Of a DNA stretch of 64,000 nucleotides, positions 39,340 to 54,500 are shown piece after piece (within the stretch, counting starts at the first letter, position 1; each line of letters starts with the position of its first letter). Below the pieces are notes generated by a model that worked only from the letters and a program-made list of their open reading frames with translations, was not told the DNA's origin and made no database searches. The stretch comes from an uncultured Gemmatimonadota bacterium (GTDB taxonomy: Bacteria > JAAXHH01), in the NCBI GenBank assembly GCA_951812955.1, contig OX638340.1, positions 2,080,001-2,144,000 of the forward strand, given 5' to 3'. Made by a program: the position numbers and the translations under genes.

Positions 39340-40824
39340 TTATTTCTGCAGCATGCCCGCGGCGCTGACGACGAAGGCCGATAGAAGCACCACCGTGGAG
39401 ACGACCCCGAGGACGAGCATGGCGGGCCGGGTCCGGTAGGCCGGAGGCAATTTGAAATTCAGGTAGACCGCCGCGAAGCAGACCAGGCCCACGCCCATGT
39501 TGGTCGCCAGAAGGGCAACGATCTGCGTGATCAGGTCGAAGGTGATGTCGCTCCAGATCGCCACGGAGGATGAGATGAAGAACCAGATCACGATGAAAGC
39601 CTGCAGCTTGCGGTAGGAATAAGACGCGAAACGCGGCCAGACTGCCGTGAGGAACTCGTGGGCGAACCGGGTCAAGGCTTCCGGTATGGTAGCCAGCGTA
39701 CCCCAGAGAGCCGCGAGAATGGCCACGTAGTACACCGGGATAAGGGCGGCGTGGATCTGCGCCCAGATGGAAGACTGTCTCGTAAGTAGGTCCCACGCGT
39801 TGCCGGGAAGGATCGTCTGCCGCGGGTAAAGCACGACCGCGCCCGCGATCATGAAGGCGGCCGTGACGATGAAGAGCACGAGCGCCCCCATGGATACGTC
39901 CCACTTGAGGGGTGAGAGCAGTACGCGCATGCGCTTCACCTGGGATGGATCCTCCCTAAGGTAGTTGATCTTCAGCGTGCCGTCAATCCGGTCGCCAAGC
40001 CGCTTCATTACCGGGTTTCCAGTCAGGCCCCAGCCCCGGTGAGCTACCCAGCCGGAATAGGCCAGGTAAGTACTCAGCGTGCCCCCCACGTAGCCGAACA
40101 CCGTGACCAGGTTCAGGAAGTAATCGTTCCGCGCGGCCGACGGCGCCCAGTCGGGGGCTGCGGGCAGGTTCCCGATGGACAGCGTTCCGAAGAGGATGGC
40201 GCCGATACTCGGCCAGACGATGATCGTGGCCACGATCGTGCCGGTCACCAGGATGCCGCAGATGATGATCTGCTGCTTTTCGAGGATGTCGTAGGAGGTA
40301 AGCAGGCTCAGGCCGATGGCCAGTCCCAGGAACACCGTGGTAACCAGGTTCTCCCAGAACGTATCCGTCGGGCCCACAGGCAGCGAATCCGTGAAGATAT
40401 GGACAACGAGATTCCCGCAGGGCTTGGCGACTGCCGTCAAGGCGATGCTCAGGGCGAGCAGTTCGATGGTCAACAGCGTCAGGATGAACCAGCCCCTGGG
40501 ACCGGGCAACTTCGCCAGCATGCGGCCGAAAGGTTGGCCGCTCACCGCCGTAAACCGCCCCAGCAGGTACGTCACCGCAACGCCCTTGACGAGCACGCTC
40601 AGCAGGATCAGCCAAAGCAGGCCGTATTCGGCCCAGGCGCCAACGCCGGTGACCAGAATGGTCTCCCCCGCGCCTACCGCCATGGACGCCACCAGCGCGG
40701 CGGGCCCGAAGAAGCCCAGCATATGCTTGAACTTCTTCCAGGACCACGGTTCCGTGTAGACGCCGGTGGGCTCAGGTATGGACAGTATTTCGGAGGATCC
40801 GGCCGATTCTTCGTCTTTGTTCAT
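39340..40824 (-). CDS. Polytopic membrane transporter, distant NRAMP/APC-superfamily-like (about 11-12 TM)
   Basis: ..FFGPAALVASMAVGAGETILVTGVGAWAEYGLLW.. resembles the NRAMP first-TM metal-binding region; Gly-rich TMs throughout. The track start is a TTG at 40848; an ATG (MNKDEESAG) lies at 40824. Family call is tentative. Confidence 0.45.
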   Translation of the reverse strand: MNKDEESAGSSEILSIPEPTGVYTEPWSWKKFKHMLGFFGPAALVASMAVGAGETILVTGVGAWAEYGLLWLILLSVLVKGVAVTYLLGRFTAVSGQPFGRMLAKLPGPRGWFILTLLTIELLALSIALTAVAKPCGNLVVHIFTDSLPVGPTDTFWENLVTTVFLGLAIGLSLLTSYDILEKQQIIICGILVTGTIVATIIVWPSIGAILFGTLSIGNLPAAPDWAPSAARNDYFLNLVTVFGYVGGTLSTYLAYSGWVAHRGWGLTGNPVMKRLGDRIDGTLKINYLREDPSQVKRMRVLLSPLKWDVSMGALVLFIVTAAFMIAGAVVLYPRQTILPGNAWDLLTRQSSIWAQIHAALIPVYYVAILAALWGTLATIPEALTRFAHEFLTAVWPRFASYSYRKLQAFIVIWFFISSSVAIWSDITFDLITQIVALLATNMGVGLVCFAAVYLNFKLPPAYRTRPAMLVLGVVSTVVLLSAFVVSAAGMLQK

Positions 40825-41088
40825 GGAAATGAAATGATAAGAACACAAAGCCGTTACATCAAGTGTTTATACTGGCACTGGATTTTCCGACCGGCCGGAA
40901 CGCACAACAGGTTATGAAGACCGCCATGCGGAACCTGCATTACCCGTACATTCCGGTTCATAAATCCCTGTTTCGACTGGACTGCTCGTTGTATAATCAT
41001 CCCATAACCACTACGTACTGAGACTCGGATAGCCCCATGTCAATCCGGGTGTTTTCAGATCCTGATCCGGCTGAAGAAAGGAAGCCAA

Positions 41089-42654
41089 TTGATGGACGCC
41101 CTTCTTAAATCGAAATCCAATGAAGCCGATCGGTCGTCAGCCAGCTCCGGAGACCGGGAAGCCCTGACCCGTAGATCCTTTCTCAAGCAGGCGGCTTTCG
41201 TGGCCGCGGCGATGGCCGCCCCCTTTCCCGTGCTGGCGGATCCCTACGCACCGCAGTCCAGGAGCGCTGCGGCGGCCGGCGTGCGTCCGGTCCGCGTCTC
41301 CGGCCGCGTGCTTTCAGGCAGGGCGGGTCTGGGCGGCGTCGCGGTAACGGACGGACTGTCCGTCACCGCCACCGACTCGGAAGGTCGATTCGAGCTCGTG
41401 TCCAACACGATTCAGTCCTTCGTATCGATCTCAACGCCCAACGGCTACGCGTTGGAGCAGAATCCAAGCGGCATTGCCTCGTTCTACCGGCCGATCATGC
41501 CGGACGACTCCGGAGAGATGGCTGTCAGCTTCGATCTCGCGGAACTGGACGGATCGGACGAACGCCACGGATTTCTGGTGCTCGCCGACCCGCAGACCCA
41601 GGACGCCTACGAAATGGGACTCTTCCACGCGGAGACCGTGCCGGACGTCAAGGAGACCTCCGCCGCGCTGGCCGGCCGCCGGCTCTTCGGCGTGGGCTGC
41701 GGAGACATCATGTTCGACGATCTGACCCTGTACCCCGAGTACGAGCGGGGCGTGCTTCGCATGGGCATGCCCTTCTTCCAGGTCGTCGGCAACCATGACC
41801 TGGACTTCGGGCCGACCGACGACGGATCCGTCCGCACGTTCTGCCGACACTTCGGCCCCAACTACTATTCCTTCGATCGCGGAGAAATCCACTACATCGT
41901 GCTGGACAACGTGTTCTGGCACGGAGAAGGATACATCGGGTACGTGACCGACGACCAGCTCAACTGGGTAACCCAGGACCTCGCCCTGGTCGAGACCGGC
42001 AGGACCGTGGTGGTCTTCAATCATATTCCCCAGTATACCACCCGTCATATCAGAACCGGGGTCGACAGCCCGTCCATTTCGTCCACGACTGTGAACCGCG
42101 AGCGTATGTACCGCCTCCTGGAACCCTACAAGACCCACGTGTTCTCCGGCCACGTGCACGAGCACGAGCATATCTTCGAGGGCGGGATACACGAGATCGT
42201 TCAGGGCACGGTCTGTGGCGCCTGGTGGAGCGGCCCCATCTGCTGGGACGGCACGCCCAACGGTTATGGCGTCTACGAGGTCGACGGATCGGATATCCGC
42301 TGGCGGTACAAGTCCACGGGCTTGCCCGAAGACCACCAGATGCGGGTCTACCTCCGGGGCAGCGATCCCGGAGCGCCGGACGAGATCGTTGCCAATGTCT
42401 GGGACTGGGATCCCGAATGGCGCGTCGTCTGGTACGAAGACGGCATGCGGAGAGGCGCCATGGCCAGACGTCCCGGCACCGATCCGCTGGCGGAATCCCT
42501 GCACAGAGGGGCCGACCTGCCCGAACGCCGGCCCTGGGTGGAACCGGTGATCACGAATCACCTGTTCTACGCGCCGGTTTCGACCCAGGCCCGGAAGGTG
42601 GTGGTCGAAGCGACGGACCGCTTTGGCCGGACTTATGCATCCGAACTGATCTGA
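41089..42654 (+). CDS. Tat-secreted calcineurin-like metallophosphoesterase with N-terminal carboxypeptidase-regulatory-like beta domain
   Basis: Twin-arginine motif TRRSFLKQAAFVAAAMAAP. ..RVSGRVLSGRAGLGGVAVTD..ATDSEGRFEL.. (CarboxypepD_reg-like). Phosphoesterase motifs GCGDIMFDD, VVGNHD, GHVHEHEH. Confidence 0.75.
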   Translation: MMDALLKSKSNEADRSSASSGDREALTRRSFLKQAAFVAAAMAAPFPVLADPYAPQSRSAAAAGVRPVRVSGRVLSGRAGLGGVAVTDGLSVTATDSEGRFELVSNTIQSFVSISTPNGYALEQNPSGIASFYRPIMPDDSGEMAVSFDLAELDGSDERHGFLVLADPQTQDAYEMGLFHAETVPDVKETSAALAGRRLFGVGCGDIMFDDLTLYPEYERGVLRMGMPFFQVVGNHDLDFGPTDDGSVRTFCRHFGPNYYSFDRGEIHYIVLDNVFWHGEGYIGYVTDDQLNWVTQDLALVETGRTVVVFNHIPQYTTRHIRTGVDSPSISSTTVNRERMYRLLEPYKTHVFSGHVHEHEHIFEGGIHEIVQGTVCGAWWSGPICWDGTPNGYGVYEVDGSDIRWRYKSTGLPEDHQMRVYLRGSDPGAPDEIVANVWDWDPEWRVVWYEDGMRRGAMARRPGTDPLAESLHRGADLPERRPWVEPVITNHLFYAPVSTQARKVVVEATDRFGRTYASELI

Positions 42655-42735
42655 GGCCGGTCCAAGACCGACTCCGAGGCATCCGAACTGATCTGAGGCC
42701 GGTCCAAGACCGACTCCGAGGCGTCCGAAACTCAC
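42639..42735. repeat. Tandem duplication of a 42-bp unit (atccgaactgatctgaggccggtccaagaccgactccgaggc) covering the last codons and stop of the phosphoesterase gene
   Basis: Copies at 42639-42680 and 42681-42722, plus a partial third copy. Confidence 0.75.
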
Positions 42736-42812
42736 GGTGAAAACGAAGAACGGGTCATGAAGAGTCAACCATTCCCGGCAGAACGACACCGCCGGATAAA
42801 AGGGAGAACAAC

Positions 42813-43772
42813 ATGGCGAACGACGGCCTGATAAGCCCCTTCGACATCGATGACGAGGGATACTTCTGGCTCAAGGGCAATCTGCATTCCCACACGACCA
42901 ATTCCGACGGGAAGCCGTCACCCCAGGAACGGCTGGACGGGTACGTCAACCAGGGATACGATTTCCTGTGTATTTCCGATCACTACACCATAACCAGGAT
43001 CGACACGGTCAGCGCGCCGGACGATTTCGTCCTGGTGCAGGGTGCGGAGATCCATCCTGAGAACCCCTTTGGCGGCCAGACCCACCACTTCCTGGCCTAC
43101 AACATCGACGAAGACATGGATTCGAAGCGCATGCCGCCGCAGCACGTCATAGACGAGGTGCGCCGGCAGGGCGGCTCGATCTGGCTCGCCCATCCCCACT
43201 GGAGTTCGGTCAACATCCTCCGGGATACCCTGCCCCTTCACGGCCTGGCAGGCATCGAAGTCTTCAACACCACTTGCCGGTGCGCCGGACGCGGCGAGTC
43301 CTCCGTACACTGGGACGACTGGATGGACCTGCTGGGAAGGCCGATTCCAGCGCTCTCCAACGACGACTCCCACGCCCTCGAGTCGGAAAACCGGGATACC
43401 TACGGGGGCTGGAACATGGTGAAGGTCAAAGAACGCACGGCGAAGGCGATCATCGACGCGCTGGAAAGAGGCTGTGCGTACGTCAGTTCCGGACCCGAGA
43501 TCCGGGACATCCAGTTGCACCGCGTCGACGATATGGGTGATGGGAAACAGGTCGTGGAGGCGAGTATCCGGTGTTCAGAGGCGCAGAGCATTCTCGCCGT
43601 GTTCGATTCCCATGGTACGGAGTTTCGGGACCGGACAGGCCATGGAAAAACCTTCGAAGATGCCACGTTTACGCTGCGGCCCAATGTACGGTGGGTAAGA
43701 TTCGAGATCATCGCCCCGGACGGCACGAAGGCCTGGTCGAATCCCATGGATCTGGCGAAAGTCGGTCGGTGA
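42813..43772 (+). CDS. PHP-domain metal-dependent phosphoesterase (CehA/McbA-like)
   Basis: ..LKGNLHSHTTNSDGKPSPQERL.. matches the PHP HxH..SDG motif. ..ISDHYTI.. and ..AHPHW.. add further metal ligands; 319 aa. Confidence 0.7.
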   Translation: MANDGLISPFDIDDEGYFWLKGNLHSHTTNSDGKPSPQERLDGYVNQGYDFLCISDHYTITRIDTVSAPDDFVLVQGAEIHPENPFGGQTHHFLAYNIDEDMDSKRMPPQHVIDEVRRQGGSIWLAHPHWSSVNILRDTLPLHGLAGIEVFNTTCRCAGRGESSVHWDDWMDLLGRPIPALSNDDSHALESENRDTYGGWNMVKVKERTAKAIIDALERGCAYVSSGPEIRDIQLHRVDDMGDGKQVVEASIRCSEAQSILAVFDSHGTEFRDRTGHGKTFEDATFTLRPNVRWVRFEIIAPDGTKAWSNPMDLAKVGR

Positions 43773-43890
43773 TACCGCCGCGGACCGCTACAGTGGGCGT
43801 TCAGAACTCGGAGGTCGAATCCCATGGATCTGGCGAAAGTCGGTCGGTGATACCGCCGCGGACCGGCACGGTGGGCGTTCAGGACTCGGA
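43737..43890. repeat. Tandem duplication of a 77-bp unit covering the last 12 codons and stop of the PHP gene plus 38 bp downstream
   Basis: Unit 1 at 43737-43813 and unit 2 at 43814-43890, about 93% identical; the second copy re-encodes ..SNPMDLAKVGR-stop. Confidence 0.75.
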
Positions 43891-43946
43891 GACTGCCGTC
43901 CCGCGTGTTGGAGGGCGTCTGCGGTCGGCCGATGGCCGATTCGAAG

Positions 43947-45581
43947 CTACGGAAGGTCCTGCCGAAGCATGACCTCGGTGAGAACGACGGCCGATGTCGA
44001 CGCATTGTCATCGTAGTAGGTAACGAAGCGCTTCGTCTCATGGGCGTCGTAGGGGGCGAGGTTCTGCGCCCACCGGAAGCCGATGGTCTGGAACATCAGC
44101 CGTGCCCTGACTACGATTCCCTGCACACCCGGCCGCGCGGCGACGCGGTACTGGACCCTGTCGCTTCCGGCCTGGAAATCCCCATCTTCCCGCGCCGCTC
44201 CATGCACCATGATTGCGGCTTCGGCGCTCTCCTTGTCGAACCCCTCGGGCAGCAGGCGGTTGTCCTTGGCGTAGGTGACGGCCGATAGCAGGCCCGTGGT
44301 AACTCCACCTGACCCGTCCGCGATGATCGGCTCATAAATCTGTACCTGGCCGGGGTCGTCGATCACTTGGTAATGCGGCTCGAAGCGGCTACCGTCCGCG
44401 TCGTTGTCGTTACCCTTAATGCTCCCGTCGGGAAGCATGGCACCGGATTCAAACACCACGTCCCCGCCGTCATCACGAACCTCGAGGTGGATCCAGGCCC
44501 TTCGCGACGGATAGGCCGTCGGCAGCTTGTGGCCCGCCAGGTTCGACACTTTAAGATCGATAACGTATTGGTTCTCCGCGCGGGAGACTGCCAGCACCTC
44601 CAATTGAGCTGTCGCAGTCTGCAAGTGCTCCCGCGTCGCCTCGGCGGCGCGCTGAAGATCGCTTGACGGCGCGGTGACCAGCAGCTCGTCCCGATACCTG
44701 TCCAGCAAACGCAACATAAACTCGTTGCCGCCGCGAAACACATGGCGCGAGACATTCTCCCTGTACTCCCCGAGCACCGAGGAGATGGGGGCCGATGAGG
44801 TCTCCGGCATGTGGCAGGACTGGCAGCTTTCGGTCGCCGAAAAGGCGCTGTGTCGCCATTCCAGGTAGGGCGTCTGCTCCGGGAAACGGGCTGTTTCTCG
44901 CCCTTCCGCGTCCAAACTTGTCGTGAACAGGGTGTGGCAGGTCGCGCACAGTTCCGATTCCTGCAGATGCGCGGATGAATCCGGTGTGAAACCGGTGGCG
45001 GACTGCATGATCCGGCGCCGCCCGTCGTCCACGTCGAAGGGCCCGAAGATCTGAGGGTCGGTGCCTGTGCTTGAACGGATCACGAAGTTCCCATCGAAAC
45101 TCGATTCCTCGCCGAAATTGTCGGGCCGGATCTGATGGCAGGTGGTGCAGGACACCCCATCGAGGGCCAACATGGCGCGCTCGTCGCCCTGCCGCGCGGC
45201 TTCCAGGTGTGCGAACACTTCTCCCAGTCCGCCGTTTTCCTTCGCCAGCACACGCGCCATGGGCATATGGCAGGTCGAGCAGGTGTCCTCGATCTCTGCC
45301 CGGGCGTCCGGATGGTCGGTCACTTCCCGGCGTACGGATGCCTGCCAGTAGGGATCCCGCGCCGAATGCGCCATGACGGAACCGCGCCATACGTGCCCGA
45401 TGGAGACGTCCGTTCCGTCCGGACCGGTTATATTGCTGTGACAGGCGATGCACTGGTCCGAAGTGACGAACGTGCTTTGATCCCCGGACTGCGCCTCGAC
45501 CGATGCGCACGCGAGCCAGGCGAAGGCGAGCGGCGCCAGCGTGAGGCACGTCAGCAACCGCCCCGTGTAGTTACCAGCCAT
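43947..45581 (-). CDS. Secreted pentaheme c-type cytochrome
   Basis: Signal peptide (..LAPLAFAWLACASVEA). Five CxxCH motifs (CIACH, CSTCH, CTTCH, CATCH, CQSCH). 544 aa. Overlaps the upstream gene by 11 nt. Confidence 0.8.
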   Translation of the reverse strand: MAGNYTGRLLTCLTLAPLAFAWLACASVEAQSGDQSTFVTSDQCIACHSNITGPDGTDVSIGHVWRGSVMAHSARDPYWQASVRREVTDHPDARAEIEDTCSTCHMPMARVLAKENGGLGEVFAHLEAARQGDERAMLALDGVSCTTCHQIRPDNFGEESSFDGNFVIRSSTGTDPQIFGPFDVDDGRRRIMQSATGFTPDSSAHLQESELCATCHTLFTTSLDAEGRETARFPEQTPYLEWRHSAFSATESCQSCHMPETSSAPISSVLGEYRENVSRHVFRGGNEFMLRLLDRYRDELLVTAPSSDLQRAAEATREHLQTATAQLEVLAVSRAENQYVIDLKVSNLAGHKLPTAYPSRRAWIHLEVRDDGGDVVFESGAMLPDGSIKGNDNDADGSRFEPHYQVIDDPGQVQIYEPIIADGSGGVTTGLLSAVTYAKDNRLLPEGFDKESAEAAIMVHGAAREDGDFQAGSDRVQYRVAARPGVQGIVVRARLMFQTIGFRWAQNLAPYDAHETKRFVTYYDDNASTSAVVLTEVMLRQDLP

Positions 45582-46692
45582 CGCGGAAACCTCCGTCGAA
45601 CCAGTCCCACAACAGGTACATGACGATCTGCGGTTTACGGCTTAACTTCCTGGCGACCGGAACCCGCAACCCCACGTTGAGCAGAATGTGCTGGCGCGTG
45701 TTGAGCGAGACCTGCAGTTGAGGCACGAGGTCCATCGCGACACCGGAACCGGAATCAAGTTCGCGCCAAGCCAGGACCTCGACCATGGGACTCCAGGCCC
45801 GGCCGAACTCGCCATCCGTGAAGGTCCTGCCGATCAGCGCCCTTATGGCTACTTCATCCTCCACGGAGCCGCTCACGGCGAATTCACCCAGCGCCTGGGC
45901 CTGGAAAAAGGCGTCTCCGGGCATAAGCTGTACGATGGCCAGGTAAGGCTCCAGTTTCGTGGAGCCCGTACCGAAGCCGTTTTCTTCGTCGCCGGATGGC
46001 AAGATGACTTCGCCGCCTATACTGAAGGCATGACCACGCCCCAAGTCGTGGTACAGGGCATACTTGTAGCCAAGCGCCAGGTCCCCGAAGCCCAGGTTGG
46101 TCCCGTCGTCCCGCTCAGAATCGCGCCTGCCGAACGGGACCTTCACTTCGATCATGCCCCGGGGGCCGAACCGCTTCTCGTATACCGGCTCGATGATAAC
46201 GGCCTTGCTGTCGTCCGTGTCCAGCGTCAGATTGAATACCGTCTCGTCTTCGGGAAAGGCTTTCTCGGTAAACAGGGGCTTTGGAACGTTGAATTCGCCG
46301 CGTGGCCAGTTCTTGTTCGTGCAGAAGGTGCGGACATTGCCGAGGATAGCGTAGATTTCCTCGTCCGTGAGGGCATCCCCGAATGCGGGCATCATGCGGT
46401 CGAAGGCCCGCACCGGTCCCCCTTCATGGATCACGGCGTGCCAGTCGGGGTCGGGTTCGCGGGAAGCGAATTCGCAGTCCGTAAAGTCCGGAAGTTCCAG
46501 TGCAAACCCGCGCTCTTCGAGCGGACTTCCTCTTCCGTCCGATCCGTGACAGGCCGCGCAGGCCTGTTCATAGAGCTTTGCTCCGTCGAGCTTCGCCCCG
46601 ACGAGCTGGTCGGCGAAGGTGGAACGCTCCACAAACAGACCGTAAAGACTAAACAGTACCACTAAGCATTTGCAGCTATATCGCATATCCAC
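45571..46692 (-). CDS. Monoheme cytochrome c domain fused to an outer-membrane beta-barrel-like domain (transporter / MetA-pathway-like family)
   Basis: Signal peptide, then ..KLYEQACAACHGSDGRGSP.. (CxxCH plus a distal Met region ..RMMPAF..). The ~250-aa C-terminal domain has alternating-hydrophobic beta-strand patterns, a G.GD motif (NLGFGDLALGYKYALY) shared with the two downstream OMP paralogs, and a C-terminal aromatic (..FRDGW). Confidence 0.6.
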   Translation of the reverse strand: MDMRYSCKCLVVLFSLYGLFVERSTFADQLVGAKLDGAKLYEQACAACHGSDGRGSPLEERGFALELPDFTDCEFASREPDPDWHAVIHEGGPVRAFDRMMPAFGDALTDEEIYAILGNVRTFCTNKNWPRGEFNVPKPLFTEKAFPEDETVFNLTLDTDDSKAVIIEPVYEKRFGPRGMIEVKVPFGRRDSERDDGTNLGFGDLALGYKYALYHDLGRGHAFSIGGEVILPSGDEENGFGTGSTKLEPYLAIVQLMPGDAFFQAQALGEFAVSGSVEDEVAIRALIGRTFTDGEFGRAWSPMVEVLAWRELDSGSGVAMDLVPQLQVSLNTRQHILLNVGLRVPVARKLSRKPQIVMYLLWDWFDGGFRDGW

Positions 46693-46858
46693 GCCGGATC
46701 CCGCGCCATCGGGAGCCGCACTGGCCGGACTGGCCGGACTACGCCTGGCACGCTACGAACCGACCGGCCGGAAGGGCTTTCCGCGCTACCGTTGACGCGT
46801 TGATTGTAACTGTGTGTTAAATTAGACGGTTTTAGGAGAGGTTTCCTGCGATTCGAAT

Positions 46859-47308
46859 TCAGACCACCCGCTCGATCCGAACGCGCTTCACCCCTTCCCT
46901 GCGTATGCGGTAACACACTGCGATGAAATCATCGGCGTCGCCAACCATCCGGGCGAAGAGATTCACCGCGACGGGGCCGTCCGGCATATTTGGCCGGCCG
47001 TCCCTGCCGTAGAACCAGCACAGTTCGGTGATCCCGTCCAGCCACCCGTGCATGCGTCCTGGCTCCAGCCTGAAGTAGCAAATGTCACCGGGCAAGGTGC
47101 GGCTTGTCAGGTTCTCGGGCGGGATGACGATGTCCTTAGACAGGAAGTAAGCGATCTCGCTGCCCGAGTACACGGCGTGGATGCCCTCTTCCTCCAGGGG
47201 CAGCGCGTCCCAGACAGCCTGGCAGGTCTTCGGCGCCTCGTCCTCAAGCAACTCGGCAACTACCGAAACGCCTTCTTCGACAAAGGTCAAACGGATCCTA
47301 CGGGCCAT
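46859..47308 (-). CDS. Small cytoplasmic protein, DUF3830-like (cyclophilin-like fold family), unknown function
   Basis: 149 aa (MARRIRLTFVEEGVSVVAELLEDEAPKTCQAVWDALPLEEEGIHAVYSGSEIAYF..). Family recollection only. Confidence 0.4.
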   Translation of the reverse strand: MARRIRLTFVEEGVSVVAELLEDEAPKTCQAVWDALPLEEEGIHAVYSGSEIAYFLSKDIVIPPENLTSRTLPGDICYFRLEPGRMHGWLDGITELCWFYGRDGRPNMPDGPVAVNLFARMVGDADDFIAVCYRIRREGVKRVRIERVV

Positions 47309-47361
47309 GGCTTACTTTCAGATTCGCTTGCGTGGTCTTGATATAGCCAATCGAAATTGAA

Positions 47362-48171
47362 CTACAACTTCATGAATATCCCGATGTCCCAGGCCGACGC
47401 ATCCAGCAGATTGTGCGCACCCGTGTATTTCGTCACGCCCGCGGTAATCCCCGCGTCGGACGTGATGTAGAAATTGAGCTCCGGACCGAATGACACGTAC
47501 TGCTGGTCGTTTCGGGTCCACTCGCCATCCGACTTTCCCAGGGCTTTCACACCGCGAATCCAGCCGGAGAACCCGACTCGCTCGCCAGCCATGAAACCCG
47601 CTTCGAGAGCGTACCTCAGTTCGTCGGAGTAATCGCTTTCACGATTATTGAAGCCGATTTCGGCTTTCAGGTAGCCCGGTGTCGGCCACAGGGAACGACC
47701 GACCTGGAGCGAGAATAACTGGTTGAATTCACCATCGCCGGTGAACAGGCCGATTTCCTGGTCGGTATAGGAATCTCCCAGCGGCAATCCCGCCATGACC
47801 TGAATGCTCACGACCGTGGGCCCGCTGGTGAGCAACCCAATCCTGGCGCCAAGCTCCCAGTCCCCCGTACCCGTCTTGGTGTCGGACCCGTGCCTGTCTT
47901 CACTGATACGCTGATAAAAGGGAATGTACCCTACAAGTGTCAACCGGTCTACAAGGCCGAATTCACCATACAGGCTGGTCGTATATCTGCTCAGATCCGT
48001 TATGTCTACCCTGTCTCCGGACGGCTCGAAATACGAATTGCTCTTAATAAACTGCTCGTTCAGCTTGAAATAGCCCTTGCCCTGGGGATGGGTCCATCCA
48101 CCGGCGAATACCGTGGATACCTGGAGGATGAACCCCGCGAGCAAGGCGCCGGCATAGATGAGTTTGGACAT
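47362..48171 (-). CDS. Outer-membrane beta-barrel protein (paralog 1)
   Basis: Signal peptide (..LQVSTVFAGG). Alternating-pattern strands, GTGDWELGARIGLL motif, and a C-terminal ..GIFMKL typical of OMP termini; 269 aa. Confidence 0.55.
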   Translation of the reverse strand: MSKLIYAGALLAGFILQVSTVFAGGWTHPQGKGYFKLNEQFIKSNSYFEPSGDRVDITDLSRYTTSLYGEFGLVDRLTLVGYIPFYQRISEDRHGSDTKTGTGDWELGARIGLLTSGPTVVSIQVMAGLPLGDSYTDQEIGLFTGDGEFNQLFSLQVGRSLWPTPGYLKAEIGFNNRESDYSDELRYALEAGFMAGERVGFSGWIRGVKALGKSDGEWTRNDQQYVSFGPELNFYITSDAGITAGVTKYTGAHNLLDASAWDIGIFMKL

Positions 48172-48210
48172 GGCACACTCCCCTTAACGGATGCCGAACA
48201 GCAATATCTT

Positions 48211-49035
48211 CTACAGTTTCAGAAACAGCCCGAATTCCCAGGCTGGCGCGTCCAGCATGCTATGAGCCCGGGTGAATTTCGACATGCTGGCGGTAATTCC
48301 CGCATTAGGCGTAACATAGAAATCGACCTGGGGGCCGAAGGACAGGTACTCGATTTCGTAACGCGAACGGAATTCATCATCCGCTTTGCCGAGGACTTCG
48401 ATCCCGCGGAGCCAGACCGATACGCCCAACCTTTCAGCGACCGTGTAACCGGCTTCGAGACTATACCGAAGTTCATCGGAATAGTCGTCAATAGGATCGT
48501 CGTCGCCCTGTCTATTGTTATACCCGATTTCGGCTTTCAGGTAGCCGGGTACCGGGTAGAGTGAATGGCCCACCTGGAGCGAGAAGTGCTGGTTGAATTC
48601 GCCGTCGCCGGTCCAGAGGACGACACCCTGGTCTGATTCTCCCAACGGCAATCCCGCCAGGGCTTGCAGGCTGACCACCGTGGGGCCCTGTGCCAGAATA
48701 CCGATCCTGACCCCTATGTCCCAGTCGCCAATGCCTGAAGTCGAATCGAAGCCTTCGGCATCCACGCTGAACTTCGAATAAAACGGCATGTAGCCCACAA
48801 GAGTCACCCGGTCGAGCAAGCCGAATTCACCGTAAAGGCTCGTCGTATTGCCGCTTACGGTCGGTATCTCGGTTTTGGACCCGGTTGCCAGGAACAGTGA
48901 TTCGGCGCGCACGAACTGCTGGCTTAGTTTAAAGTACCCCTTGCCCTTCGGCTGAGTCCATCCGCCTGCGTGGGCAAGAGTTGAATAGCAGATCAACGCG
49001 GCTGTCATCAATGTGGCTGCTATGAACCTGTTCAC
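48211..49035 (-). CDS. Outer-membrane beta-barrel protein (paralog 2, ~55-60% identical to paralog 1)
   Basis: Signal peptide (..YSTLAHAGG) and the same motif set (GIGDWDIGVRIGIL .. GLFLKL); 274 aa; tandem paralog of the gene at 47362..48171. Confidence 0.55.
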   Translation of the reverse strand: MNRFIAATLMTAALICYSTLAHAGGWTQPKGKGYFKLSQQFVRAESLFLATGSKTEIPTVSGNTTSLYGEFGLLDRVTLVGYMPFYSKFSVDAEGFDSTSGIGDWDIGVRIGILAQGPTVVSLQALAGLPLGESDQGVVLWTGDGEFNQHFSLQVGHSLYPVPGYLKAEIGYNNRQGDDDPIDDYSDELRYSLEAGYTVAERLGVSVWLRGIEVLGKADDEFRSRYEIEYLSFGPQVDFYVTPNAGITASMSKFTRAHSMLDAPAWEFGLFLKL

Positions 49036-49061
49036 CTCATGCTCCTTTGTGATTCAGTTGC

Positions 49062-51452
49062 TCAAAATGATCCACTGCCGAGTGGCATATTCACAAACGC
49101 GCAATGAAGAATGACATTGCTGTAGGAGTCAATCGTCTCGCCCGCACGGGGTGTGAAGGTACTTGTAAAACTGCGGCTGCCTGTGACGTTCCCAAAATGC
49201 CTGGCGCCAGTAGGAGCGGGACCGCTACGCCAATTGATAGAGGCACTGGTGTATAGAAACAAATGTGCAGCAATCCCGCCTCCAGTGTTCATTCCGGTTA
49301 TGGTCAGTTTGAGTCGACCGCCGGAGACTTCTTCGAAGGTCACGGACCCGGCGGTGCTCGGATAGCTGCTCGTACCGGAAATTGAAGCAGTACGGCTTCT
49401 CAACATCGGTGGAGGCGGCGGAGGCTCGGTCACCGTCAACGACGCCGTACCGGACTTGCCGTCCACCTCTGCTGTTATCGTCGTGGATCCGGCATTCCGT
49501 GCCCTGGCCAGTCCCGTGGTGCTTATGGTCGCAACCGACGTGTTGCTGCTCGTCCACGTAAAAGTCTTCCCGGTAATCTCCATGTTGTTCGAGTCATAGG
49601 CTGTCGCAGTGAATCGTTGCGTCTCGCCTTCTTCGATCGAACGGGAAGATGGAGACACGGCAACCCGGTCAACTACGGGGGGTGGAGGCGGAGGTTCCGT
49701 CACCCTTAACGTCGCTGTGCCGGATACGCCGTCGACGGTTGCCGAGATCGTCGTGGAACCTGCATCCAGGCCCCTCGCCAACCCAGTTACACTTATCGTG
49801 GCTACCGTCTCATCAGAACTTGACCACGTAAACGTCTTGCCCGTTATCTCGGAATTGTCCGACGTGTGGGCGGTGGCAGAAAACCGCCGGGTCTCACCCT
49901 CCTCGATTGACGCTGAGGAGGGACTCACTGTCACGGTTGCGACCATCGGTGGTGGTGGCGGAGGTGGTTCGGTCACTGTGAGCGTCGCCGTGCCGGATAC
50001 TCCATCAGTCGTCGCCGTGATCATCGCTTCGCCCATTCCGACACCAGTCGCCAGGCCGTTCGCGTCGACCGTCGCCACCATGTCATCCGAACTCGACCAT
50101 GTAAACTCCACGTCCGGGATTTCCATCCCGTCCGACGTCATTGCCATCGCCGCGAACTGCTGCGTCGCGCCTACCTCGATCGTCGCTTCAAGTGGACTCA
50201 CTGACACCGTCGATACCACCGGCTCGGGTGGCGGTGGTTCGGTCACTGTGAGCGTCGCCGTGCCGGATACTTCGTCAGTCGTCGCCGTGATCATCGTTTC
50301 GCCCGTTCCGACACCGGTCGCCAGGCCATTCGCGTCGACCGTCGCAACCATCTCGTCAGAACTCGACCACGTAAACTCCGCGTCCGGGATTTCCATCCCG
50401 TCCGACGTCATTGCCATCGCCGCGAACTGCTGCGTCGCGCCTTCTTCGATCGTGGCTTCCGATGGACTCACTGTCACGGTTGCTACAACTGGCTCTACTG
50501 GCTCGGGTGGAGGCGGTTCGGTCACCGTCAGTGTCGCCATGCCGGATACACTGTCCGCGGTAGCCGTGATCATCGCCTCGCCTGCTCCTACACCACTCGC
50601 CAGGCCGTTCGCGTCGACCGTCGCCACCATCTCGTCAGAACTCGACCACGTAATCTCCGCGTCCGGGATATCCATCTCGTCCGATGTCGAAGCCATCGCC
50701 GCGAACTGCTGCGTCGCGCCTACCTCGATCATCGCTTCAGGTGGACTCACCGACACAGTCGATACCACCGGATCGGGAGGCGGAAGTTCGGCTACGTTAA
50801 TGGTAACCGGCGAACTCGCTATACCGTCCGCCGTGGCGCGGACCGTTGCCGTACCCGCTGCGACTGCCGTGGCAACGCCGGCCGATGTAATGGTCACTTT
50901 GCTGGTATCGCTGCTCGCCCATGAGAAACTGACACCTTCGCGAATGGCGCCTCCAGACGTCCGGGCCGTCGCCGTGAAGGTCACCATTTCCCCAACCATC
51001 AGCTCCTGGGTCGAGGAAGGAGAGATCGTGACCCGGGCCACGGCGGCCTGGGTGACCGTGATCGTCACCGGTTCGCTCACGATGCCGTTTCCCGTCGCTC
51101 TGATGGTCGCCGTACCAACACTTACCGCGGTTGCCCGTCCACCGGCACTGATGGTTACTACGGCGGTATTACTGCTGGACCAGGTATAATTGACACCGCT
51201 TATTACGGCGCCGTCGGAAGCCTTGGCGGTCGCAGCCAACTGTTGTGTTCTGCCCACTTCCAGAGACACCATGTTCGGACTCACTTCGATGCGAGAGACC
51301 GTCGGTGCGGGGGGAGGTGTCGGCGTCGGTGTGGGTGTTGTCGGCTCGGCCGGTCTGGTCGGGGAGGAGTCCCCACCGCCGCACCCGACATTCAGCAATG
51401 CGCTTGAAACCGCTATCATGATGAGACCGGTAGCAATCGACCTGAATGACAT
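49062..51452 (-). CDS. Cell-surface lipoprotein with nine tandem bacterial Ig-like (Big_2) domains and a distinct C-terminal domain
   Basis: Lipobox (..ALLNVGCGG) and a Pro/Thr-rich linker. Nine ~85-aa repeats of the form (V)SxSPxxxxIEVGxTQQFxAxAxTSDG..ITxxxFTWSSSDxxVATVDANGLATGVGxGExxITAT..GVSGTATLTVTEPPPP. The DNA repeats span about 49300-51100; the antisense ORF 49609..51189 is a shadow. Confidence 0.75.
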   Translation of the reverse strand: MSFRSIATGLIMIAVSSALLNVGCGGGDSSPTRPAEPTTPTPTPTPPPAPTVSRIEVSPNMVSLEVGRTQQLAATAKASDGAVISGVNYTWSSSNTAVVTISAGGRATAVSVGTATIRATGNGIVSEPVTITVTQAAVARVTISPSSTQELMVGEMVTFTATARTSGGAIREGVSFSWASSDTSKVTITSAGVATAVAAGTATVRATADGIASSPVTINVAELPPPDPVVSTVSVSPPEAMIEVGATQQFAAMASTSDEMDIPDAEITWSSSDEMVATVDANGLASGVGAGEAMITATADSVSGMATLTVTEPPPPEPVEPVVATVTVSPSEATIEEGATQQFAAMAMTSDGMEIPDAEFTWSSSDEMVATVDANGLATGVGTGETMITATTDEVSGTATLTVTEPPPPEPVVSTVSVSPLEATIEVGATQQFAAMAMTSDGMEIPDVEFTWSSSDDMVATVDANGLATGVGMGEAMITATTDGVSGTATLTVTEPPPPPPPMVATVTVSPSSASIEEGETRRFSATAHTSDNSEITGKTFTWSSSDETVATISVTGLARGLDAGSTTISATVDGVSGTATLRVTEPPPPPPVVDRVAVSPSSRSIEEGETQRFTATAYDSNNMEITGKTFTWTSSNTSVATISTTGLARARNAGSTTITAEVDGKSGTASLTVTEPPPPPPMLRSRTASISGTSSYPSTAGSVTFEEVSGGRLKLTITGMNTGGGIAAHLFLYTSASINWRSGPAPTGARHFGNVTGSRSFTSTFTPRAGETIDSYSNVILHCAFVNMPLGSGSF

Positions 51453-51578
51453 ACATCCTCCCGGTTTAACGATGGGCGAATCGCGTATTGTAGTTCCTCA
51501 TTGGGCAACCAAATACGTCGGAAAGTCCATCAATGGGTCATTCCACTAACTGGTCATTCCACTTGAACCCTGTGATTT

Positions 51579-54500
51579 TCACTTCCCGTTCCCGTTCCAG
51601 CGTCCTCTGCCGTTGCGTTTCCTTCCATTCATTTCCACCTGTTTCCATCCGCTTTCACCGCTGTGTACGGGAGCACCGGCCAGTCGGACGCGCTTCGCGT
51701 CGATCGATTCGCGCAGCGTTTTCAGCAACTCATCCGAGGGCCTGACGCGGAAATCACTCCCTGCCCTGACGCCGATCTCACTCTGATCTGCTGTAGACAC
51801 TTCTAGCACTACGTCGCAATTCCCCGGGTAAGTCTCCAGCACGTGTTTGATCGATACGAGGTTCTCATCCGCTACCTGTTCGTGCTCCATGGTCACCACG
51901 ACGGACCGCGCCAGCCGGTCCCGCGCATCCGTCAGTGAAATGATCTCGGAAGCGATGACCTTGTTGTCCTCTTCTTTTTTCGACAGGTGTCCATGTACGA
52001 GGACCAGCGAGTCGATCGTCACGAGTTCGCGATGCAGTGCGTACGGTTCCGAAAAGACGAGCACCTCACCCGAACCGGAGAAGTCTTCGAGCGTTACGAA
52101 GGCCATGGTCTTGCCGTTTCGATCCACGATGGGCTTGATTTCGGTCACGATACCACCGACCACGACGGTGTCCTGCCGGCCGTTTGCGTGGTCGAGGCGC
52201 CGCATTTCCGCCGTCGTAAAGGCCCGAATGTCTTCCTCGTATTCCTTCAGCGGATGCCCCGTCACATAAAATCCCAGCAGTTCCTTCTCGAGGCCCAGTT
52301 CCTGGCTTGCCGGCCAACGGGGGACGAGCGGCAGCACCGGCTTGTGTACTTCCAGATTCGCACCCGCTCCCATCCCGTCGAGGTCGAAAAGGGAGGTCTG
52401 TCCCTTCTCCCTGTCGTTCTGACGGGTCTGCGCCCCTTCAATGACCGTGTCGAGCACTTCCATGAGCTGTGCCCGGTGCCCCTCGAGGCTGTCGCAGGCG
52501 CCGGCCTGGATCAGGCTTTCGAGCACCCGCTTGTTTACCAGCCGCAGATCGATGTGCTCGCAAAGTCCGTACACATCTTCGAAGCGTCCATGTTCCTTCC
52601 TCGCCTCGACGATGGATTCCACCGCGGCCTGGCCCACGTTCTTGATCGCACAGAGCCCGAATCGGATGGAATCTCCTTCGACGACGAAGGTCTTGTCGCT
52701 TCTGTTGACATCGGGCGGCAGCACGTCGATGCCCATTTTCCTGCATTCGTTGATCAACACGACGATTTCTTCGGTATTCGACATCGTGTTGGACAGCAGT
52801 GCGGCCATGAACTGTACCGGGTAGTGCACCTTCAGGTAAGCTTCCTGGAAGGCGAGGACGGCATAGCCCGCCGAATGGCTCTTGTTGAACGCGTAACCGC
52901 CGAAGTATTCGATCAATCCAAACACTTCCTCCGCGATATCCTTCTCGATGCCGTTCTCAACCGCGCCATCGACGAAATTCCGACGTTCTTCGGCCATGAC
53001 TTCGGGCTGCTTCTTGGCCATGGCCTTCCTAAGGAAATCGGCCCGTCCCAGGGTGTAGCCCGCCATGTCGCGGGCGATCTGCATCGCCTGCTCCTGGTAG
53101 ACGATGAGCCCGAAGGTTTCCTTGAGTGCCGTCTCCATCACGGCGTGGTGATACGTAACCTTCTTGCGGCCGTGCTTCCGGTCGATGTAGTCGTCCACGA
53201 CACCGCCGTTCAGGGGTCCCGGCCTGCAGAGCGCGTTCATGGCGATCAGGTCATCGACGCCGTCCGGCCGCAGGCGACGGAGGAATTCGTGCAGCCAGCC
53301 GCTATGGAACTGGAAAATCCCGGTCGTTTCTCCCCGCCGGAACAGGTCGAGGGTCTTCGGATCATCCAGGGGGATATCATCCAGCTCGATCTCGTCGCCC
53401 GTCGTGTCTTTGATCATCGCGATGGCGTCCTGGATGACAGAAAGGTTCTGCAGTCCCAGGAAGTCCATCTTCGGCAGCCCGATGTCCTCCATGAGCTCGC
53501 CGGGATACTGGGTAACGATCGTATCCTTGTTACTGGGCTTGTACAGCGGCACGTAGTCGGTCAGTTCGCCCGGCGTGATCACGACGCCGGCCGCGTGGAC
53601 CGAGGCGTGGCGCGCAAGACCTTCGAGGGTCTTCGCGTACTGGATCAACTGGCCGTCCGTACCGCCGCCGTCGGCCATCTGGCGAAGTTCCGGGACCTGG
53701 TCTATGGCCCGGTCGAGGGTGATCTTCAATTCGGTCGGAACCAGCTTGGCCACGCGATCCACGTCGCCGTAGGACATGCCGAGGACGCGGCCCACGTCAC
53801 GGATCGCCGCCTTCGCGCCCATGGTGCCGAAGGTGATGATCTGGGCTACGCTGTTCTTGCCGTATTTCTCCACCACGTAGTTGATGACCTTGTCCCGTTC
53901 ACGGTCCGCAAGGTCGATGTCGATATCGGGCATGCTGACGCGCTCGGGATTCAGGAAGCGTTCGAAAAGCAGACCATAGCTGATGGGGTCGATATTCGTG
54001 ATGCCCAGCACGTAGGCGACCATGCATCCGAGGCCCGATCCCCTCGTCATGAGCGGGATACCCTGCTCCGCGGCAAAACGGGCGATATCTTCGACGATGA
54101 GGAAGTAGCTGGGATAGCCCATCTGGTTGATTACCCCGAGTTCGTATTCGAGGCGGGCCTTCAACTCGGGGGTGACGGTGTCGTAACGCGCCTCCATCCC
54201 GTCGAAAGACAGCTTGCGCAGGTACGCGTCCGCACTGTCATAGTCCTCCGGCAACGGGAAGTGGGGAAACTTGAAATTGCCCATTTCCATTTCAAATTCA
54301 ATGGACTCGGCGATGGATACGGTGTTTGCCAGGGCGCCGGAAACATGGCCGAACAACTGGCCCATCTCGTCCGCGTTCTTGAAGTAGAGCGAATCCGTGG
54401 CAAACCTGAGCCGCTTGGGGTCGTTCAGTTCCTTCCCGGTCTGGATGCAGACCAGTACGTCCTGGGCGGGCGCGTCGTCCCGTCTGAGGTAGTGGGCGTC

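Follow-up and report, generated by a model that had tools for sequence, protein, structure and literature searches.

We re-examined a 64,000-nucleotide (nt) stretch of DNA from an uncultured Gemmatimonadota bacterium (contig OX638340.1, positions 2,080,001 to 2,144,000; here called the window), in which a preliminary description had singled out six consecutive minus-strand genes as a candidate outer-membrane electron-transfer module. We found that the conserved unit is not the six genes but only the last two, one encoding a class I cytochrome c fused to a predicted 12-stranded outer-membrane β-barrel (hereafter, the fusion) and the other encoding a secreted pentahaem c-type cytochrome. The arrangement of these two genes is beyond chance, and in some loci a gene for a cupredoxin-like protein takes the place of the pentahaem gene. 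Thus, the finding is narrower than the preliminary description, with two genes rather than six, yet broader, as the pair is widespread, tightly coupled and uncharacterised. The probable role of the module is electron exchange with a small molecule that passes through the outer membrane.

The open reading frames (ORFs) of the window were re-examined together with their coordinates and translations, and the six cluster proteins were searched against Pfam. The two core genes and their junction are:

45571 to 46692, minus strand: core gene 1, cytochrome c-barrel fusion, 373 amino acids (aa) (Pfam, structure model, homologues)
43947 to 45581, minus strand: core gene 2, secreted pentahaem c-type cytochrome, 544 aa (five CxxCH motifs, homologues, Foldseek)
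45571 to 45581, minus strand: 11-nt overlap ATGGCTGGTAA of the fusion stop and the pentahaem start (sequence)

We scanned for relatives of the fusion in one genome per species and found at least 589 species genomes that encode one. The best 80 of these, which we kept, come from Gemmatimonadota, Acidobacteriota, Gammaproteobacteria, Latescibacterota, Balneolales/Rhodothermales, Alphaproteobacteria and others, and include one isolate, Rhodohalobacter sp. 8-1 (locus L066), in which the pair is present. Ten local genes of the window were then compared by tblastn with 86 loci, and the pair was counted on the 81 that were non-redundant. The fusion and the pentahaem gene are adjacent in 69 of these 81 loci, across several phyla, which is the conserved co-occurrence in other genomes that the preliminary description had proposed to look for. 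In 59 loci, the pentahaem gene directly follows the fusion in the same orientation, in 10 it lies upstream and divergent, and the remaining 12 have none within ~8 kb. In a reciprocal look-up, the fusion was directly upstream of all three pentahaem homologues inspected (3/3).

The form of the junction also recurs. In the window, the fusion ends with ...GAT GGC TGG TAA and the pentahaem gene begins with ATG GCT GGT AA., and 27 of the 59 same-strand loci share the identical 11-nt overlap, its ATG read in the frame of the pentahaem gene; the rest have mostly overlaps of 4-7 nt or gaps of at most ~54 nt. The recurrent overlap implies translational coupling of the two genes. It also explains why the N-terminus of the pentahaem protein is nearly invariant at M1 and G3, with 'MAG' in most sequences.

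The cytochrome c-barrel fusion and its probable redox partners

The fusion is divided as follows:

46612 to 46692, minus strand: signal peptide, residues 1-27, with cleavage placed by eye between ...STFA and DQ (hydrophobic N-terminus in the translation, variable in the alignment)
46321 to 46608, minus strand: cytochrome c domain, residues 29-124
46546 to 46560, minus strand: CAACH haem motif, residues 45-49
46246 to 46320, minus strand: linker, residues 125-149, TNKNWPRGEFNVPKPLFTEKAFPED, a candidate lumen-occluding segment by analogy with Pput2725
45574 to 46245, minus strand: 12-stranded β-barrel, residues 150-373

Its N-terminal part matches Pfam Cytochrome_CBB3 (2.8e-10) and also Cytochrom_C, and its barrel matches Phenol_MetA_deg (PF13557; 33.5 bits versus a gathering cut-off of 22, residues 174-291). 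Each of these matches exceeds the curated cut-off, and the database contains more than 6000 homologues. We aligned 56 family members and built from them a very confident AlphaFold2 (AF2) model, in which a helical domain at the N-terminus is followed by 12 β-strands (predicted local distance difference test, pLDDT, 93.9; predicted template-modelling score, pTM, 0.87). Thus, the preliminary description correctly saw a monohaem cytochrome c and a barrel in one protein, and the membrane barrel that it had proposed to check with AlphaFold is indeed predicted for the C-terminal domain. The best Foldseek matches of this barrel include FapF (6.7e-10), the COG4313 channel Pput2725 (2.5e-6), KdgM and NanC.

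The N-terminal domain is a class I c-type cytochrome, with CxxCH, distal Met and cytochrome c fold all present. Exactly one CxxCH is found in each of the 56 aligned members, and both Met101-Pro102 and a Cys73/Cys124 pair are nearly invariant. The Met of a Met-Pro pair is the usual sixth ligand in class I cytochromes c, and M101 is the probable sixth haem ligand here. In the barrel, we noted a G-x-G-D motif (residues 201-204) and an LP[ST]GD motif (residues 231-235), of which G203/D204 and P232/G234 are nearly invariant. The C-terminal tail DWFDGGFRDGW (family form LWDWFDGGF..GW) is conserved, and the linker, with the family consensus WPRGEFN.P.PLFTEKAFPEDE, is among the two most conserved segments of the protein.

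We judged the placement of the cytochrome domain from conservation in each structural element of the model. Strand 1 begins at the periplasm in all outer-membrane barrels, and with this orientation the highest mean top-residue frequencies belong to periplasmic elements (linker, 0.72; T1, 0.74; T5, 0.71; C-terminal tail, 0.74), whereas extracellular loops L1, L2, L4 and L6 have the lowest (0.27-0.37) and, on the outer side, only the motif-bearing L3 is conserved. Since the periplasmic-side elements are conserved and the outer loops are variable, we infer that the cytochrome domain and its partner dock on the periplasmic face of the barrel, a placement that the conservation of this face fits, and are not displayed at the surface.

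We also note two loci in which gene calling splits the fusion into an ORF of ~220 aa for the cytochrome and one of ~150 aa for the barrel (L090, 4863-6011; L092, 1687-2773), directly upstream of an intact pentahaem gene; a frameshift, a pseudogene or a mistake in the assembly may account for the split.

The pentahaem cytochrome has two recognisable regions:

44796 to 45467, minus strand: haem-binding α-helical domain, residues ~39-262, with CxxCH at 44, 101, 145, 212 and 253 (family alignment; colinear with the five haem motifs of MccSep by profile alignment)
43950 to 44609, minus strand: C-terminal β-sandwich region, residues ~325-544 (AF2 pLDDT mostly 80-95)

The five CxxCH motifs reported before are exactly five, starting at C44, C101, C145, C212 and C253. 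In Pfam, the protein matches multihaem families weakly, among them the MtrC/MtrF domain II/IV model (8.2e-10). It has at least 8000 homologues, with 55-60% identity between phyla and ~110 invariant columns, in which the invariant non-haem residues include DPYW, HxFRGGN, GHKLPTAYPSRR, GNDND and KDNRLLP. A Cys in the signal peptide (...AWLAC...) is not conserved across the family, and we rejected a lipoprotein on that ground. In the AF2 model (whole-model pLDDT 69.8), the β-sandwich is confident and parts of the haem domain, modelled without haems, are weak. Foldseek returned a single strong match, the Thermochromatium tepidum cytochrome c552 (5ze8; E-value 8.6e-12, template-modelling score 0.60 on the target).

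The family profile of the pentahaem cytochrome is colinear with that of MccSep/ExtKL through all five haem motifs and the loop of the immunoglobulin (Ig)-like domain. Within the β-sandwich, an invariant N-x-x-G-H-K-L-P (residues 347-354) is followed by an invariant or near-invariant T-A-Y-P-S-R-R, and in the alignment it corresponds to NLQPHAMPTGAPFR in 5ze8 and to HAGHSIPDG(Sec)P in MccSep, such that G350-H351-K352-L353-P354 forms a His-x-[LIM]-Pro loop with PHAMP (5ze8) and GHSIP (MccSep) as counterparts. MccSep is a periplasmic polysulfide reductase with an active site that relies on Sec325 and the haem-2 distal ligand Cys239 (bioRxiv 10.1101/2025.11.18.688581). The position of Sec325 is occupied by a nearly invariant Tyr357 in the pentahaem family, that of Cys239 is variable (R232 here), and no Cys is conserved outside the CxxCH motifs. 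Thus, by alignment the pentahaem cytochrome belongs to the c552/MccSep-ExtKL fold class but is outside the MccSep family, because Sec325 is replaced by Tyr and an equivalent of Cys239 is absent.

In nine loci without the pentahaem gene (L038, L041, L052, L063, L064, L071, L072, L084 and L085), a gene for a cupredoxin-like protein overlaps or follows the fusion. This protein is secreted, of ~250 aa (for example L084, 9044-9769), with invariant His, Cys, His and Met in type-1 copper spacing (...SD.TLH..., CD[IV]H.WM), an invariant Cys pair and, in addition, a carboxypeptidase-regulatory-like β-sandwich. Its sequence weakly matches a blue copper domain protein and amicyanin, and no Pfam or NCBIfam family covers the copper domain. 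Thus, the partner swap leaves the cytochrome-barrel as the constant element and makes the electron carrier, a periplasmic redox protein built of a redox domain and a β-sandwich, the variable one.

Upstream genes and the surrounding region

The other four genes of the cluster, all lineage-specific neighbours, are:

49062 to 51452, minus strand: putative lipoprotein with seven Big_2 domains, 796 aa, and a C-terminal DM13-like domain
48211 to 49035, minus strand: paralogous barrel A, 274 aa, of the same family as barrel B
47362 to 48171, minus strand: paralogous barrel B, 269 aa, a divergent COG4313/Phenol_MetA_deg-like outer-membrane protein
46859 to 47308, minus strand: DUF3830 (cyclophilin-like) gene, 149 aa, outside the conserved pair

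Much of what the preliminary description said about the layout held up. All six minus-strand ORFs were recovered, with spacers of 26, 39, 53 and 166 nt between the first five genes and the 11-nt overlap at the end. The Big_2 (4.6e-92, seven copies) and DUF3830 (3.4e-30) assignments are supported by Pfam, the two ~270-aa barrels are paralogues (56% identity; E-value 3e-116), and the G-x-G-D motif is common to the fusion (GFGD) and the paralogues (GIGD and GTGD), with the motifs superposed by hhalign. The six-gene module itself did not survive the tblastn comparison. The Big_2 gene, both paralogous barrels and the DUF3830 gene accompany the pair only in close relatives in which the genes for DnaE, a CehA-like hydrolase, a metallophosphoesterase and an NRAMP-like protein are also syntenic; they are absent from L014, L016 and L017, in which the pair is 74-77% identical, and from all more distant loci. 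We therefore rejected a six-gene operon, as the upstream four genes are present only where the entire region is syntenic.

The two paralogous barrels had no match in Pfam, and BLASTP revealed no similarity between a paralogous barrel and the fusion, so their kinship is visible only by profile-profile comparison, in which hhalign aligned the two families with a probability of 76% (E-value 2e-5) and placed the G-x-G-D and LP.GD motifs together. Moreover, relatives of the paralogous barrels with 38-41% identity match PF13557. On these alignments, both are distant members of the COG4313 superfamily, remotely related to the fusion barrel. Barrel A has just 158 database homologues, and the few with a source name are mostly from Gemmatimonadota.

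The C-terminal part of the Big_2 protein (49065-49445) is 52% identical to that of its orthologue in L001, whose C-terminus matches Pfam DM13 ('electron transfer DM13'; 4.8e-6); in the window protein itself, DM13 is below the Pfam threshold. The L001 orthologue is twice as long (1647 aa), and the window gene has an internal repeat at 49963-50791 (270 bp, 3 copies, 84% identity) that encodes Big_2 units.

Downstream of the cluster, the window (39340-43772) encodes an NRAMP-like membrane protein of 502 aa with no Pfam match, a metallophosphoesterase with a twin-arginine-like signal and MetallophosN/C domains, and a CehA/McbA-family metallohydrolase (NCBIfam, 3e-32), all syntenic in close relatives only. 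Two tandem duplications lie in this region, each copying the 3' end and stop codon of its host gene into the next intergenic region. The first (42637-42729; 42 bp x 2.2, 98% identity) begins within the last codons of the plus-strand metallophosphoesterase gene (end 42654). The second (43735-43891; 78 bp x 2.0, 94% identity) begins within the last codons of the plus-strand CehA-like hydrolase gene (end 43772) and sits in the convergent gap ahead of the pentahaem stop at 43947. A promoter and terminator scan of 43600-51700 gave counts no higher than the shuffle expectation and was thus uninformative on operon boundaries. Rfam and tRNA scans of the window gave no match.

All-against-all clustering of ORFs from 72 loci found no neighbour beyond the pair in more than nine loci. 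A third conserved gene (~316-326 aa) appeared to flank the pair in L001, L003 and L005, but we rejected it because the proteins do not align (17 invariant columns) and the window copy is the CehA/McbA-type metallohydrolase. A ferric-reductase-like gene adjoins the pair in L091 only. In L003/L023, L005/L022 and L090, an Asp/Arg β-hydroxylase (cupin) gene and a convergent gene for a ~500-aa protein without a family lie downstream of the pair, with 69-88% identity between loci, which is probably lineage synteny in one related group.

Nine loci of Acidobacteriota and Gemmatimonadota (L034, L036, L049, L054, L063, L070, L071, L085 and L091) encode, near the fusion, a secreted protein with weak similarity to PsbU that contains two or three helix-hairpin-helix (HHH_3) repeats; in six of them it is accompanied by a ~150-aa membrane protein without a family match. 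These two genes are found with both pentahaem-type and cupredoxin-type partners and have no homologue in the window; in L054 (6799-7260 and 7338-7907), four genes are co-directional, with a 9-nt gap ahead of the fusion. In gammaproteobacterial loci with a divergent upstream pentahaem gene (L035, L040, L043, L047, L056, L058 and L069), a DUF3300 gene, with an ORF of ~280-580 aa, is downstream of the fusion. The most distant family members (P0376 and P0313) are on contigs of less than 2 kb and gave no usable context.

A proposed mechanism and its alternatives

The explanation that we favour, and to which we give an even chance, is a two-gene module in which a cytochrome c sits at the periplasmic mouth of a small-molecule channel and works with a periplasmic redox partner. 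The product of gene 1 would place a 12-stranded barrel of the COG4313/FapF type in the outer membrane, and the conserved 25-residue linker would keep a His/Met class I cytochrome c at the periplasmic opening of the barrel. The product of gene 2, a soluble periplasmic protein with a haem domain and a β-sandwich, would dock on the periplasmic face. A small substrate, such as a metal cation or a small molecule that is hydrophobic or redox-active, would traverse or lodge in the barrel and swap electrons with the tethered haem, while the pentahaem cytochrome would relay them between this haem and the periplasmic or inner-membrane respiratory chain, a role that the blue-copper protein would assume in some lineages. 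There would be no haem wire through the membrane; the substrate would come to the haem. His/Met cytochromes c and cupredoxins are usually high-potential carriers, and for this reason oxidation of the substrate with inward electron flow is the more likely direction. The preliminary description had offered a haem-dependent uptake or oxidation system as one of its options, and of its suggestions this comes closest to the two-gene explanation.

Several points weigh against this explanation. In the loci compared, the pair has no consistent link to a terminal oxidase, a quinol dehydrogenase or any other respiratory gene. The pentahaem cytochrome, with its many invariant columns, could itself be the catalyst and not a relay. 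Furthermore, the COG4313 substrates known so far are hydrophobic organics and not redox substrates, and we have placed the cytochrome domain relative to the barrel from conservation and analogy.

We considered a further-reaching version of the two-gene explanation, in which cytochrome-outer-membrane-barrel fusions would comprise a second family, independent of Cyc2 and analogous to it in function, with a class I cytochrome c joined to a COG4313 channel. Abundant heterotrophs of soil and sea (Acidobacteriota, Gemmatimonadota, Gammaproteobacteria and Balneolales) would use the pair to oxidise or reduce an extracellular or membrane-permeant redox substrate, for example Fe(II)/Mn(II), hydrophobic sulfur species or shuttles of the quinone or phenazine type, and electrons would enter the respiratory chain through the interchangeable pentahaem or blue-copper partner. 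We regard this version as tentative, a possibility and not an expectation.

A narrower sub-case of the favoured explanation, which we think unlikely, is a Cyc2-like metal oxidase, in which the fused haem would act on a cation entering the barrel from the exterior, Fe(II) or perhaps Mn(II) or Cu(I), and oxidise it, with the pentahaem cytochrome or cupredoxin as a pure periplasmic shuttle to the respiratory chain. The partner swap offers a natural experiment on which component catalyses, and the interchange of a multihaem cytochrome with a type-1 copper protein favours the fused haem as the catalyst. This swap recalls the rus operon of Acidithiobacillus, in which Cyc1 and the rusticyanin shuttle act downstream of Cyc2. 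The carriers, according to their record titles, are mostly soil and marine heterotroph lineages and not known iron oxidisers, which speaks against this sub-case, as does the lack of any iron-related gene consistently linked to the pair (the NRAMP-like gene of the window is lineage synteny). The combination of a signal peptide, a single CxxCH and an outer-membrane barrel follows the same logic as Cyc2 (PMC8406198), and the extracellular vestibule of Pput2725 is strongly electronegative (PMC4493636); both points count in its favour. However, the Cyc2 signature P-x-F-A-R-[QK]-[TY] is found in none of the 56 fusion members, the barrel has 12 strands and not 16, and the haem is carried in a full, globular 95-residue cytochrome c that cannot enter a 12-stranded lumen.

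If instead the pentahaem cytochrome were the enzyme, acting on a sulfur, nitrogen or other small compound, the barrel would import its substrate and the tethered cytochrome c would serve as a dedicated acceptor or donor. The pentahaem fold and its colinear five-haem/Ig-like architecture, common to c552 and the polysulfide reductase MccSep, are consistent with such a role, as is its extreme conservation, including the many invariant non-haem residues, and the authors of the MccSep study state that the outer-membrane route of the substrate is not known (bioRxiv 10.1101/2025.11.18.688581). However, the catalytic residues of MccSep are not conserved (Sec325 corresponds to Tyr357, and there is no Cys239 equivalent), and the model of the haem domain, at the whole-protein pLDDT given above, is too weak to spot a haem with open coordination. 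Moreover, a cupredoxin, normally an electron carrier, substitutes in nine loci, which is hard to square with an indispensable pentahaem catalyst. We consider this alternative unlikely.

We think it very improbable that the barrel is only an anchor that tethers a periplasmic cytochrome c, with the pair as a conventional couple for electron transfer in the periplasm. In its favour, lipid or transmembrane anchors commonly hold cytochrome c domains, and no substrate-related gene is consistently linked to the pair. However, the barrel keeps the COG4313 motif cluster in L3 and at strand 4, the linker ranks among the two most conserved segments of the protein, and a lipobox would be far cheaper than a 224-residue barrel.

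Finally, the Mtr/Pcc-like porin-cytochrome conduit of the preliminary description, in which the six genes wire electrons through the outer membrane, is close to untenable even though barrels and multihaem cytochromes are co-directional and closely spaced and the pentahaem protein matches the MtrC/MtrF model, since all three barrels are ~12-stranded and COG4313-like versus the 26-strand sheaths of the MtrB type, four of the six genes are not kept with the pair beyond one lineage, there is no periplasmic decahaem cytochrome and no conserved lipoprotein cytochrome (the pentahaem signal-peptide Cys is not conserved), and a 12-stranded barrel, here with a putative N-terminal plug, cannot hold, or sheathe, a haem domain, which excludes an Mtr-type haem chain on geometry. 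Thus, of the overall interpretation given in the preliminary description, the cytochrome-barrel fusion, its remote kinship with the two other barrels and its tight co-location with the pentahaem gene stand, while the six-gene module and the Mtr/Pcc conduit do not.

Comparison with known systems

The module resembles MtrAB, PioAB and Pcc in that an outer-membrane barrel and a multihaem cytochrome are encoded together, a likeness confined here to the fusion-pentahaem pair. It differs in that their barrels of 20-26 strands enclose a membrane-spanning multihaem cytochrome, which 12 strands cannot do. Type Va autotransporters and FapF are protein-secretion devices, the former sending an N-terminal passenger out through a C-terminal 12-stranded barrel by way of an α-helical linker, whereas the N-terminal domain here is a haem-loaded and probably disulfide-stapled redox domain, and its display at the surface is disfavoured because the extracellular loops of the fusion are the least conserved.

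The pentahaem cytochrome shares with c552 (PDB 5ZE8), MccSep/ExtKL (PDB 9WT8) and PtdA a periplasmic location, an α-helical domain that bears five colinear CxxCH motifs and, after it, a β-sandwich with a G/P-H-x-[LIM]-P loop. The similarity is marginal (E-values of 5.7e-4 and 0.04 with the family profile), and the protein here is ~100 residues longer, with a Tyr in place of the catalytic Sec/Cys and no haem-ligating Cys. Pentahaem/β-sandwich cytochromes encoded near outer-membrane channels have been reported, as ExtI-ExtKL(MccSep) and PtdA-PtdB, but those channels have no fused cytochrome, whereas the partner channel here is fused to cytochrome c.

The barrel itself compares best with the COG4313 channels (Pput2725, TcpY and SphA; PDB 4RL8). 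In the COG4313 structure, the lumen of a 12-stranded barrel is blocked from the periplasmic side by residues ahead of strand 1, and a conserved Asp-x-Thr/Pro-Thr-Gly cluster in loops L2-L4 has been proposed to form a lateral gate (PMC4493636). The fusion barrel likewise is predicted to have 12 strands, matches PF13557 and carries the motif cluster, with a spacing of 28 residues from D204 to P232 as compared to 27 from D92 to P119 in Pput2725, a match by motif and spacing, and at the place of the Pput2725 plug it has a conserved segment of 25 residues. In contrast, the COG4313 members described are stand-alone channels for hydrophobic organics, and none of those in the structure paper (PMC4493636) or the other papers retrieved has a cytochrome domain or coupling to a multihaem gene. 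If the fusion does handle a redox substrate at the outer membrane, it would be the first of the COG4313 channels to carry a redox function of its own.

We found no curated family model or published description of the fusion-pentahaem pair. NCBIfam has no model for either protein, and source names are just 'c-type cytochrome' or 'hypothetical protein'; the literature retrieved on Phenol_MetA_deg/PF13557 and on cytochrome-porin fusions deals with aromatic-uptake channels and Cyc2 only, and the fusion is not described there. At least 589 species-level genomes contain the pair, and metagenomes add thousands of its proteins, many from phyla that are dominant in soils and sponge microbiomes and physiologically poorly understood. 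If a redox substrate is handled at the outer membrane, the module would provide these groups with an unrecognised route of electron exchange and would supply a new marker gene pair.

In concept, Cyc2 is the closest system. It is the sole cytochrome-outer-membrane-barrel fusion in the literature we retrieved and the main marker gene for neutrophilic iron oxidation. In Acidithiobacillus, Zetaproteobacteria and Gallionellaceae, Cyc2 has an A-x-P-x-F-A-R-[QK]-[TY] motif upstream of CxxCH and a 16-stranded OprO/OprP-like porin (PMC8406198). We detected no sequence relationship between the fusion and Cyc2. Both consist of one polypeptide with a signal peptide, a single N-terminal CxxCH and a C-terminal barrel, and the fusion, at 373 aa, lies above the ≥365 aa used as a criterion for Cyc2; in both, periplasmic electron carriers are encoded alongside and the substrate must reach the haem. 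They differ in that Cyc2 has a short cytochrome segment with the signature, whereas the fusion has a full class I cytochrome c fold and the signature in none of its 56 members, and in that the 16-stranded porin of Cyc2 is replaced here by a 12-stranded barrel of the COG4313/FapF type. Thus, the module shares the logic of Cyc2 with another cytochrome fold and another barrel.

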